Source: an uncultured Clostridia bacterium
GTDB taxonomy: Bacteria > Bacillota > Clostridia > CAKSNL01 > HGM11501
DNA length: 64,000 nt
Assembly: GCA_934476235.1 (NCBI GenBank)
Contig: CAKSNL010000001.1
Span: forward strand, 44,497-108,496
Direction of reading: 5' to 3'
Below are positions 1-23,456 of this stretch, piece by piece. Positions within the stretch are counted from its first letter, which is position 1, and every line of letters begins with the position of its first letter. Position numbers and translations under genes: made by a program. The notes below the pieces were generated by a model. That model ran no database searches and was not told where the DNA came from. It saw only the letters and a program-made list of their open reading frames with translations.

Positions 1-86
1 GGCTCTTCCGTCTCGCTGCGGCTCGGTCACGCCTCGGTTCTGACAGTCCACCGGACTGTCATTCATTGCCTCGGCGCCGCTTCGCT

Positions 87-116
87 ACCTTTAGCAAGGA
101 GGGCATTTAAACTCCC
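87..116. repeat. Copy A of the shared intergenic motif CCTTTAGCAAGGAGGGC-TTTAAA-CTCCC
   Basis: Identical 17-mer plus flanks also found at 23178-23207. Confidence 0.5.
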
Positions 117-7817: not shown

Positions 7818-9566
7818 TTAAGCCTTTTCTTTTGTGAACTTTTTGATGATGAGCAATGTAAGAACCATAAGCACAATGCTCAAAGGAAGCATGATGAATG
7901 CGTTCTGTATAAATCCCGCAGCGATGTAGCATACAAACGATACCGCGGCAACGGTTATCGCGTAAGGAAGCTGGGTCGTAACATGGTTTATGTGGTTTGA
8001 CTGGCTTCCCGCAGACGCCATTATCGTCGTATCGGATATGGGCGAGCAGTGGTCGCCGCAAACGGCACCCGCCATGCAAGCCGATATCGCAACAACGCAG
8101 ATTGAATTGTCAAGCGCGTTGTTTCCGAAAATTGCAAGAACGATGGGGATGAGAATTCCGAATGTTCCCCAGGATGTTCCGGTTGCAAACGCAAGACCGC
8201 ATGCGATTAAGAATACGATTGCCGGGAGCATTACGATTGCCGCGCCCGCGTAATTTCTTACAAACTCCGCTATAACGATCTTTGCGCCGAGACTGTCTGT
8301 CATCGTCTTAAGCGTCCACGCGCAGCCTAAGATCATGATAGCCGGAACCATTGCCTTAAAGCCCTCGGGAATCGACTCCATGCACTCTTTGAAGTTTAAC
8401 ACCTTTCTTAACATAAAGTAGATAACGCTGAAAATGAGACCGGCAAACGCGCCGCATACAAGACCGACAGATGCGTCCGCCTCAGAAAATGAAATAACGA
8501 AATCCCTGTAGCCGGCTTCTCCCGCGGTGAAGAATCCGCCGGAATAAATGAGCCCAAATATGCAGGCAATGATGAGCACGGCAACGGGAGCAACAAGGTC
8601 CCATACTATGCCGTTTTTGCCGTCGCCTGTGCTTTCAAGCGCCTTGAAAGCTTCCGCGTCGTCGGACGAGAAAAGATCGCCCGCCTCGGCATTTTCCTCA
8701 TGCTTTTTCATCGGTCCGTAATCGAACTTGCCCACTGCAAGAGTAATCATCATAGCAATGGTCAAAAACGCATAAAAGTTAAAAGGAATCGCCTTTATAA
8801 AGAGCGAAAAACCGTTCTGACCCTCGGGAACGAATCCGGCAACCGCAGCCGCCCAGGACGATATCGGCGCGATTATGCACACGGGAGCCGCCGTTGCGTC
8901 TATAATATAAGCGAGCTTTGCGCGCGAAATTTTGAACTTATCCGTTACCGGACGCATTACGGAGCCGACCGTCAGACAGTTAAAATAATCGTCAACAAAT
9001 ATCAGAACGCCGAGCGCTACGGTTGCAAGCTGAGCGCCGACCTTTGACTTTATGTGCTTCGACGCCCATCTTCCGAACGCCGCGGAGCCTCCCGCCTTGT
9101 TCATAAGCGCAACGATAGCACCCAAAACTATCAGGAAAAAGATTATTCCGATGTTATAGGAGTCCGCAACCGAAGCGATGAATCCGTCCGCAAAAAGATG
9201 GTCGATCGTGCCGGAAAAGCTTCCGCCGGCATAAAGCGCCGCGCCGGTTACAATTCCGATAAAGAGCGAGGAATACACCTCTTTTGTAATCAGGGCAAGC
9301 GCAATTGCGATGATGGGCGGCAAAAGCGCGAACCATGTCGCATAAAGCCCGATATCCTCCCTCGCGCCCGTGAGCGCTTTATCCAGATTTTCGTCGAAGT
9401 TTTCATCCTTGTCAACGTTTTCGGAATAATTGTCAATATATTCCCACGCGTCAAAATCATCTTCCGCCCCGTCATTCTCGGCTGCCACATTTGCGGCAAA
9501 CGAAAGCGCCAGAGAGAAAATGAGCATAAGACAAAGCAAAAGCTTCACATTCTTCATGTTTTTCAT
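7818..9566 (-). CDS. NhaC-family Na+/H+ antiporter with an N-terminal signal peptide and an acidic extension
   Basis: Roughly eleven hydrophobic segments typical of the NhaC family. An AAGGGGGAT RBS precedes the ATG at 9566. The N-terminus has a signal peptide plus a D/E-rich ~40-aa segment. Confidence 0.6.
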   Translation of the reverse strand: MKNMKNVKLLLCLMLIFSLALSFAANVAAENDGAEDDFDAWEYIDNYSENVDKDENFDENLDKALTGAREDIGLYATWFALLPPIIAIALALITKEVYSSLFIGIVTGAALYAGGSFSGTIDHLFADGFIASVADSYNIGIIFFLIVLGAIVALMNKAGGSAAFGRWASKHIKSKVGAQLATVALGVLIFVDDYFNCLTVGSVMRPVTDKFKISRAKLAYIIDATAAPVCIIAPISSWAAAVAGFVPEGQNGFSLFIKAIPFNFYAFLTIAMMITLAVGKFDYGPMKKHEENAEAGDLFSSDDAEAFKALESTGDGKNGIVWDLVAPVAVLIIACIFGLIYSGGFFTAGEAGYRDFVISFSEADASVGLVCGAFAGLIFSVIYFMLRKVLNFKECMESIPEGFKAMVPAIMILGCAWTLKTMTDSLGAKIVIAEFVRNYAGAAIVMLPAIVFLIACGLAFATGTSWGTFGILIPIVLAIFGNNALDNSICVVAISACMAGAVCGDHCSPISDTTIMASAGSQSNHINHVTTQLPYAITVAAVSFVCYIAAGFIQNAFIMLPLSIVLMVLTLLIIKKFTKEKA

Positions 9567-9904
9567 TTTTATCCCCCTTAAAATATTTTAAAATAAAATA
9601 AGCCATAGCCCGCAAAAAAGCCACAGCCAAAAATGATAGCACTCCGCCTTTTTGCGACAGTACAACGCATATTCTGCGCTGTCCCAACCTTAAAATACAA
9701 AGCAGGTATTAAAGGTTTCGGCGAAATCCCCTTTCAATCTCCGTTTTCTGCTTTAAATCTACGGAAAGCTACTTTTGTCATCCGCGCCTCTATCTTTTAT
9801 TTTTCCTTTATTTTACCACAACCGACATTTCCCGTCAAGCTTTTTATCGCGTTTTCGGAAATAATTTTTTTATCGGAATATGTCGGCAAACCTCAAGTTA
9901 ATGC

Positions 9905-23110: not shown

Positions 23111-23170
23111 AAAAGCGCCGAAATATACCGAGTATTCCTAAAAATCCTCCCGGTTTTTATTGCATAAAAA

Positions 23171-23220
23171 CCACCCTCCTTTAGCAAGGAGGGCTTTAAA
23201 GGCTCCCTTGCTAAAGGGAG
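23171..23220. repeat. Copy B of the shared motif, here part of a ~50-nt imperfect palindrome (CTCCTTTAGCAAGGAGGG ... CTCCCTTGCTAAAGGGAG)
   Basis: Inverted repeat seen in a convergent intergenic region. Confidence 0.5.
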
Positions 23221-23304
23221 CTGTCATTTTTCTTAAAAATGACTGAGGGATTTTTCAGTACACCCGCATAAGTCAAGGGGTAATTTTTTACGCACCCCCC
23301 ACAT

Positions 23305-23326
23305 AGCGCCATGCGGCGCTTTTTTA
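23305..23326 (+). terminator. Short GC hairpin (AGCGCC-ATGC-GGCGCT) plus T6, a candidate terminator downstream of rpiR
   Basis: The stem is only 6 bp, so this is a weak call. Confidence 0.4.
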
Positions 23327-23456
23327 TTGCATAAAAAAATGCCCGGAGCCTTAAGTACTCCGGGCGGAAGGAACATATAATAAGGCTTTTACACCCTATT
23401 ACCTTTTTTATTTGCACGGAGCGGAAAATACCGCTCCGTGCTTTGCTAAGAAAATT

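Follow-up and report, generated by a model that had tools for sequence, protein, structure and literature searches.

Two intergenic sites of a Clostridia genome are probably copies of one mobile, modular family of hairpin-forming repeats

Introduction

An exact 17-nt sequence, CCTTTAGCAAGGAGGGC, occurs twice on the + strand of the window, that is, the whole 64-kb stretch of Clostridia DNA analysed here: once at positions 88-104 (site 1) and once at 23178-23194 (site 2). This raises the question of why two such distant non-coding regions look alike. In a preliminary description, the motif was proposed to be a small repetitive extragenic element, a structured small RNA family or a recurrent protein-binding site. 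The first of these proposals agrees best with our results. Both sites are probably copies of one mobile, modular, hairpin-forming, non-coding interspersed repeat family that shows presence/absence polymorphism, and they look alike because each holds a copy of the composite. Its members occur in Clostridia of the gut and rumen (Oscillospiraceae, Acutalibacteraceae and relatives) as well as in viral (phage or prophage) contigs.

Results

The shared 17-mer belongs to a hairpin of a larger unit

The window contains only these two exact copies of the 17-mer. A third copy, in reverse complement and with three mismatches, is located at 23201-23217. Shuffled versions of the window contained 0.10 matches on average and none of 100 shuffles reached the observed three, which confirms that coincidence is unlikely. 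A chance match, or the alternative that a single duplicated gene fragment left its remnants at both sites, is hardly credible: the occurrence of only two exact copies in 64 kb speaks in its favour, but homologous modules are present in hundreds of unrelated loci, and both regions are non-coding and hairpin-dense, neither being a gene fragment. Nor is the sequence restricted to two sites devoid of covariation, as shown below for its neighbouring module.

The similarity between the two sites spans approximately 31 nt with one indel per side, CCTTTAGCAAGGAGGGC[A]TTTAAA[GG]CTCCC in a local alignment. The motif of about 25 nt described earlier is indeed repetitive, but the actual unit of repetition is much larger. 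The 17-mer is not free-standing: it is the loop and the 3' arm of a small hairpin, hereafter hairpin A, within a modular repeat. The SD-like AAGGAGG noted in the motif is present; it is simply the 3' arm of this hairpin and no start codon follows it. When viral contigs were searched for the exact 17-mer, three matches were obtained, all in unrelated contexts, and these were discarded as chance matches.

Read on the sense strand, the unit comprises a tail-complement (AATCCCTCA), a hairpin B whose perfect stem varies greatly (GTCA..TGAC), an 80-nt module M that may be absent, and hairpin A (GCTCCCTT-loop-AAGGGAGC). Site 1 is an M-carrying unit with a possible decayed partner, and site 2 consists of two M-less units arranged head-to-head (Table 1).

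Table 1. Features of the two sites in the window
Feature	Position	Strand	Basis or remark
Site 1, module M	9-90	+ (lettering)	Covariance model R1, 100.8 bits, E = 2e-20; sole full copy in the window
Site 1, post-M hairpin A', GCT.CCTT-TAGC-AAGG.GGGC	84-104	+	Contains the 17-mer (88-104); 5' arm from the 3' end of M
Site 1, linker ATTTAAA then CTCCC	105-116	+	Common with site 2 (TTTAAAGG then CTCCC); local alignment
Site 1, possible decayed linker and hairpin-A 5' arm, TTTTAAAGGCGCTCTTGCGAA	137-157	+	85.7% identity to 23195-23215 over 21 nt, E = 1.3 (weak)
Site 2, left unit, tail-complement AAAAATCCTCCC	23140-23151	+	Pairs with 23245-23255 as closing stem (fold)
Site 2, left unit, hairpin B (H1), GGTTTTTAT-TGC-ATAAAAACC	23152-23172	+	Fold
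Site 2, left unit, hairpin A (H2), CCCTCCTT-TAGC-AAGGAGGG	23174-23193	+	Carries the 17-mer (23178-23194)
Site 2, central palindromic linker CTTTAAAG between the inverted units	23194-23201		Read from the sequence
Site 2, right unit, hairpin A (H3), GCTCCCTT-GCTA-AAGGGAGC	23202-23221	-	Canonical family version; family consensus GGCTCCCTTGTGYAAAGGGAGC
Site 2, right unit, hairpin B (H4), GTCATTTTT-CTT-AAAAATGAC	23223-23243	-	Fold; GTCACGGCGAAGCCGGGGC instead in L002 and L003
Site 2, right unit, tail TGAGGGATTTTT (+ strand lettering)	23244-23255	-	Family tail CTGAGGGATTGT; fold

Anatomy of the two sites

At site 1, M is fused to hairpin A, and the 17-mer is this genome's version of the post-M hairpin. 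On the + strand, M reads GTCTCGCT (10-17), a mini-hairpin, TCGGTCAC, the 5' arm of stem P2 (31-37), the P3 hairpin (41-61, TGACAGTCC-ACC-GGACTGTCA), CATTCATT, the 3' arm of P2 (69-75) and GCCGCTTCGCTAC, which ends at 88. The composite extends to the left of the window and begins with the same 12-mer as site 2, AAAAATCCTCCC (in reverse complement, positions 11037-11048 of contig L001). The copy of M in the window is not significantly more stable than its shuffles (z = -0.9 and -1.5), and the case for the structure of M rests on covariation at the level of the family.

The location of the two sites downstream of convergent genes, stated in the preliminary description, is correct for site 2 only. 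Site 1 is flanked by two genes of the same (-) strand, a GT8 glycosyltransferase gene (215-1027) and a tyrosine recombinase gene starting approximately 110 nt to the left of the window. The recombinase gene, which faces site 1, occupies positions 11138-11962 of L001 (approximately 110 to 930 nt left of the window, - strand; Pfam Phage_integrase, 88 bits), and the left edge of the window may abut an integrated element. The site-1 composite sits between the terminator of the GT8 gene and the promoter region of the recombinase gene.

Site 2 is a pseudo-palindrome of 117 nt (23140-23256) centred on CTTTAAAG. Its predicted fold, with z-scores of -6.6 for RNA and of about -7 to -7.7 for either strand folded as DNA, consists of a closing stem, AAAAATCCTC / GAGGGATTTTT, around four perfect hairpins, H1 to H4. 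The imperfect palindrome of about 50 nt reported previously at this site is real; two adjacent perfect 8-bp hairpins (H2 and H3) within this larger structure describe it more accurately. Each of H2 and H3 pairs perfectly within itself although several stem positions differ between them; local hairpins are therefore maintained, rather than one long palindrome. AT-rich variants of hairpin B are common in the family. In both units, the gene-sense strand reads tail-complement, hairpin B and hairpin A relative to the convergent gene that each unit follows. The intergenic region of site 2 also contains an exact 17-nt direct repeat, TTTTTATTGCATAAAAA, at 23154-23170 and 23321-23337. The first copy is located within H1 and the second just after a terminator-like hairpin, GCGCC-ATGC-GGCGC; the second copy may be another module of the hairpin-B type.

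Ordinary terminators or operators, alike by convergence or through a common regulator, are a very improbable source of these hairpins. In favour of this reading, the two sites follow genes, the hairpins are rich in GC, and T-runs come after some copies of the family. However, the hairpins of the window lack a proper T-tract, being followed by ATTTAAA at site 1 and by CTTTAAAG at site 2, and separate canonical terminators adjoin the two sites (181-213 and 23414-23441). Moreover, identity over modules of 17 to 80 nt across bacterial families cannot be explained by convergence. The proposed role as a protein-binding site in double-stranded DNA, and with it an operator, is unlikely because the stems covary instead of keeping their sequence.

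Strain variation at site 2

Contigs with the same flanking genes were compared. Two of them (L001 and L004) are identical to the window and two others (L002 and L003) derive from strains that are approximately 98% identical to it. L002 has a 79-nt M (78.6 bits with the covariance model) in place of the CT at 23176-23177, which belongs to the 5' arm of H2. This M is homologous to positions 10-88 of the window, the DNA immediately upstream of the 17-mer at site 1. The presence of M exactly at the site-2 17-mer in this strain explains the likeness of the two sites in the window. At this junction, 2 nt are exchanged for 79 nt without target duplication.

L002, which carries M, and L003, which does not, differ by only five mismatches in 10.4 kb (99.95% identity), so the change is recent. 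In both of them, a completely different hairpin is swapped in for H4. All indels between the strains with approximately 98% identity, over more than 10 kb, fall within the site-2 element. Modules are thus gained, lost or swapped between near-identical genomes, and the elements are mobile or recombinogenic.

The A/B unit in viral contigs

The M-less unit was searched for in viral contigs, a category that may include prophages or host fragments, with a gapped pattern of 21 bases, AGGGAGCTGTCA-N(4-30)-CTGAGGGAT, and 69 stretches matched. Their alignment defines the A/B unit as hairpin A (GGCTCCCTT-GTGY-AAAGGGAGC), hairpin B (GTCA...TGAC) and a tail (TGAGGGATTGT). The alignment contains 27 distinct sequences of hairpin B; the stem is perfect, with a length of 5-11 bp, in 26 of these. 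On average, 3.3 pairs are added to the fixed foot, compared with 0.5 in shuffles. The tail and hairpin A are complementary over 5-7 nt only (TCCCT/AGGGA), and no convincing terminal inverted repeats were observed in the unit. In annotated collections (GenBank phages and PLSDB plasmids), the unit was present in just three unannotated faecal 'Bacteriophage sp.' records.

One site in the viral contigs is polymorphic: nine empty versions (CCTCCTT-t/tt/ttt-TACCGAAAAC) and ten filled versions have identical flanks, the insert being approximately 70 nt long. TTACCG is present on both sides of the insert and is a candidate target site duplication at that single site. A search for empty variants of a second A/B site gave no matches. 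At 60 distinct viral-contig sites, the orientation of the unit in tandem-gene contexts is biased 21:6 in favour of a gene-sense strand reading tail-complement, hairpin B, hairpin A, and the units with the closest genes lie only tens of nucleotides upstream of a Shine-Dalgarno sequence and start codon.

Units also form tandem and mixed arrays, both in viral contigs and in genomes. In six viral-contig loci (L067, with five copies, L079, L080, L093, L110 and L118), the 5' half of hairpin A, AAAGGCTCCCTTGTGC, is repeated two to five times in tandem, in some cases in contigs that otherwise have common flanks, which suggests replication slippage or recombination within the element.

Distribution and structure of module M

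A pattern for M (TCTGAC-N-GTCATTCA-N-GCTTCGCTAC) matched 14 copies in viral contigs and at least 118 stretches in a collection of species-representative genomes; no match was obtained in GenBank phages and PLSDB plasmids. The matches listed (80 titles) are all Clostridia MAGs (Oscillospiraceae, Acutalibacteraceae, Feifaniaceae and 'Eubacteriales') from human, ruminant and deer guts. Among these listed matches, up to three stretches with the exact 24-base pattern were found per MAG, and the species of the window does not appear. Many copies are located at contig ends, as expected for dispersed repeats.

Mutual information over 132 distinct copies revealed a 2-bp mini-hairpin in addition to two nested stems, and compensatory changes occur in each of them. 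Each stem position exhibits three to four types of pairs, and the internal loops are highly conserved. A non-canonical pair, at columns 32 and 60, also covaries (C.C in 86 copies, T.T in 22, G.A in 15 and A.A in 5). In an alignment of 121 sequences (A2), 91.7% of the stem cells are paired, compared with 74.4% in shuffles, and the covariation score is 0.399, compared with 0.105 after shuffling (reached in none of 500) and at most 0.096 in slid controls. Both sides have changed in 13 of the 18 pairs; the four invariant pairs, like the GCTAC end, lie within the search pattern, and their constancy is partly by construction. This end (GTAG on the other strand) is found in all 121 aligned copies, the pentamer being part of the pattern.

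The mismatches in the stems are strongly asymmetric, with 133 cells of C.T/T.C versus 6 of G.A/A.G, and 20 of A.C versus 11 of G.T. On the complementary strand, they become mostly tandem G.A pairs and G.T wobbles. This asymmetry indicates that the selected fold is most likely that of the strand beginning with GTAGCGAAGC, in single-stranded form, which corresponds to the - strand in the window. About one quarter of the M copies, from many species and including that of the window, share a tandem T.C/C.T mismatch in the middle of P2 (A2 columns 30-31 and 70-71), in which both arms read CTCG, giving G.A/A.G on the other strand. This looks like a conserved feature of a subclass rather than decay.

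Across species, the order of the composite is tail-complement (..CCCTC[A/C]GTC), hairpin B, AGC or ACC, [M], and CC(C)T(T/C)-loop-(A/G)AGGGAGGC. The post-M hairpin takes the last bases of M (GCTAC) into its 5' arm and forms in approximately 55% of 123 copies; in L210 and L229 it reads cctttaggcaagggaggc. M also recurs at distances of 2.5-4 kb in one contig (L179, L132/L172 and L221), within composite repeats of 100-450 nt sharing 88-95% identity. Some species thus have higher-order composites of their own that contain M.

Genomic context of M and a possible role as RNA

Among the flanking long ORFs, M is found in 24 convergent gaps, in 19 and 14 tandem gaps, and in 5 divergent gaps; convergent gaps are enriched and divergent gaps depleted. 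The elements are intergenic, mostly at gene 3' ends, beside unrelated genes. The 149 ORFs neighbouring M match 150 Pfam families, none of which is found in more than four ORFs or enriched. No transposase or integrase is present among the 25 Pfam families listed, and neither TnpA, TnpB nor an integron integrase was found. Together with the variety of orientations, this survey speaks against M acting as a cis-regulator for one class of genes or forming one end of a larger IS. A link of M with a gene class was accordingly rejected, and so was a larger autonomous element carrying M, the long shared flanks in L179, L132 and L221 being composite repeats and not an IS.

The comparison with Rfam gave no relevant match. 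A gathering scan of the window with Rfam 15 returned only a lysine riboswitch elsewhere, permissive scans of both sites (E <= 10) yielded only noise, and the positions of M in 13 loci from other species had no match. The riboswitch (RF00168, 103 bits, 9629-9800, - strand) is located upstream of a gene encoding a 582-aa protein of the Na+/H+ antiporter family (7818-9566, - strand), which is an ordinary and known arrangement. No tRNA or tmRNA genes are present in the window.

The proposal of a structured small RNA family, made in the preliminary description, may hold for M, the 80-nt module adjacent to the motif, which covaries strongly. In its full form, this explanation takes M, and perhaps the A/B units too, as a functional structured RNA (an sRNA or a protein-bound intercistronic or 3'-UTR element), with the repeats being multiple copies of a gene and not selfish DNA. 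The nested stems, the internal loops strongly conserved across families, the covarying non-canonical pair, the strand-specific mismatches with tandem G.A on the GTAG strand, and the orientation bias of the A/B units, some of them just upstream of Shine-Dalgarno sequences, could all be explained by such a host or phage function, as could the T-run that follows the post-M hairpin in 32% of copies (background, 18%). This enrichment is weak, and a terminator role for the hairpin of M was not retained. Nevertheless, we consider the RNA explanation improbable. M is found in all orientations, with a tandem split of 19:14, and has no consistent promoter or terminator of its own; it is not associated with a gene family and its presence differs between near-identical strains. 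One copy interrupts a gene (see below), and many end contigs. Furthermore, REP-type DNA repeats covary too, so covariation alone cannot separate RNA from single-stranded DNA.

Association with RAYT genes

As a further alternative, the RAYT encoded by these Clostridia could mobilise the elements, which would then be classical REP/BIME sequences. Several observations are consistent with it. The folding strand of M starts with GTAG, which is the REP tag, and the alternating inverted arrangement of site 2 is typical of BIMEs. M often lands inside REP-like GTAG-tagged hairpins, solo copies taking the form GTAGGGACAGGCG[M]CTCGACTGTCC. With an E. coli RAYT sequence as the query, homologues were detected in two M loci. 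The first (L237, 3150-3770) scores 75.4 bits against NCBIfam REP_Tyr_transpos, the cutoff of which is 80. In the second (L241, 2411-2952, - strand), the RAYT-homologue gene is split by a solo M within a REP-like hairpin in its own coding sequence; the GTAG of M introduces a stop codon in frame, and the frame is recovered when 81 nt are taken out. The RAYT family counts over 7,100 relatives; among them are entries named RayT and entries that their sources assign to Clostridia or Ruminococcaceae.

However, the flanks of these genes carry a different repeat. In 80 metagenome loci with RAYT (293 kb), the genes are flanked, often on both sides, by short GTAG-tagged hairpins of the type GTAGGGGxCG...CGxCCCCTAC (for example GTAGGGGACGGCGTCCTCGACGTCCC and GGGCGAGCAATGCTCGCCCCTAC). 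CCCCTAC is found 70 times per 100 kb in these loci, compared with 18 in M loci and 3 in the window. The 80 loci contain no M core and no A/B core, the M model giving one weak match of 28 bits, and the window contains neither a RAYT nor a GTAGGGG-type REP. Hairpins A and B, including the 17-mer hairpin, exhibit no GTAG or CGTC tag, and the elements are also present in viral contigs. A local RAYT as the mobiliser of M and of the A/B units is not supported by this adjacency test; M and the A/B units are not cognate RAYT repeats, and the REP/RAYT explanation is distinctly improbable.

The repeats flanking the RAYT homologues of gut Clostridia (L243-L322, for example L256, L257, L282 and L287) are GGGxCG-loop-CGxCCCCTAC hairpins, the stems of which appear, by eye, to covary around a fairly constant loop. 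They apparently constitute an undescribed REP-RAYT system in Firmicutes, distinct from the M and A/B family.

Discussion

We favour the explanation that both sites belong to one mobile repeat family. With some reserve, and by analogy with REP/BIME or IS200-type elements, we propose that the elements might spread through a single-stranded hairpin form recognised by an enzyme supplied in trans. Insertion seems to favour other hairpins, and the elements would be mainly selfish. If transcribed, they would add stable hairpins to 3'-UTRs or intercistronic regions and could stabilise or terminate mRNAs. Several observations count against the mobile-family explanation: no mobilising enzyme was found, the RAYT loci being devoid of M and A/B cores; terminal inverted repeats are not clear; the M junction is no clean insertion and has no target duplication, the candidate duplication of the A/B unit coming from one site; and the window contains only two loci in 64 kb.

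It is possible, although rather unlikely, that M represents a new class of structured single-stranded nucleic-acid element, either as the recognition hairpin of a hairpin-targeting ssDNA mobility system other than a local RAYT, or as a multi-copy non-coding RNA that also spreads as DNA. The features behind this suggestion are its length of about 80 nt, two nested stems that covary, the conservation of its internal loops, a non-canonical pair that is isosteric, a strand-specific fold, and its occurrence in several families of gut Clostridia.

The family is apparently undescribed so far: no prior description of M or of the A/B repeats was found in the literature, including papers on REP and RAYT, and Firmicutes are not part of a survey of GTAG/CGTC repeats. 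The Oscillospiraceae and their relatives rank among the gut bacteria that are most abundant and least often cultured, and the searches gave no account of the repeats in their genomes. These repeats break assemblies, as seen from the many copies at contig ends, and every indel that distinguishes the closely related strains of this comparison is due to them. Their translations presumably appear as spurious 'hypothetical proteins' in Clostridia annotations. A catalogue of the repeats would improve MAG assembly, annotation and strain typing. In addition, M offers a well-defined, strongly covarying handle for finding a new ssDNA mobility mechanism or a new RNA, and the empty and filled sites of the viral contigs provide a natural system for studying the insertion of the element.

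Comparison with known systems

Pneumococcal BOX elements are modular (boxA-boxB-boxC), with fixed A and C ends. Like other Gram-positive modular repeats, they share with the present family optional or repeated modules, stable stem-loops and a non-coding, intergenic location in Firmicutes. Tandem amplification of one module is also observed here, as in the half-hairpin-A copies of L067. No sequence relationship is known, here it is the tail, the GTCA/TGAC foot and hairpin A that stay constant, and BOX is not known to have an equivalent of M.

The ends of IS200/IS605 elements, their non-autonomous derivatives and integron attC sites resemble M in that function appears to be tied to a folded single strand. 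The structure is kept while the stems vary, some unpaired or mismatched positions are conserved, and the fold is strand-specific; M is also often found in or next to other hairpins. In contrast, no TnpA, TnpB or integron integrase accompanies M, the R/L box consensus of attC is absent, and there are no cassette arrays.

The closest behaviour is that of MITEs and of BIME/REP mosaics, from which the family departs in its terminal inverted repeats and in RAYT adjacency, respectively. Similarly to the MITEs Correia of Neisseria, RUP of pneumococcus and bcr1 of Bacillus, the elements are shorter than 200 nt, have no coding capacity and show empty/filled polymorphism in near-identical genomes, with a possible target duplication (TTACCG) at one A/B site. 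Unlike MITEs, they lack convincing terminal inverted repeats, a search for a related autonomous IS found none, and 2 nt are replaced at the M junction without duplication.

With regard to the REP, BIME and REPIN sequences of Proteobacteria, which are associated with RAYT, three differences are observed: the RAYT homologues of Clostridia are flanked by another repeat and not by M or A/B units; M is an 80-nt module with two nested stems and conserved internal loops, whereas a REP is a hairpin of 20-40 nt; and hairpins A and B are untagged, in a family that is also present in viral contigs. Nevertheless, both are short extragenic hairpins that form mosaics of alternating orientation with variable linkers, vary between strains and mostly occupy the 3' ends of genes. 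Compensatory changes preserve the structure of M, as in REPs, and the GTAG at the start of its folding strand, which lies within the search pattern, is a candidate tag. The mosaic organisation itself is also shared, with two units head-to-head around CTTTAAAG at site 2 and tandem or mixed arrays elsewhere.
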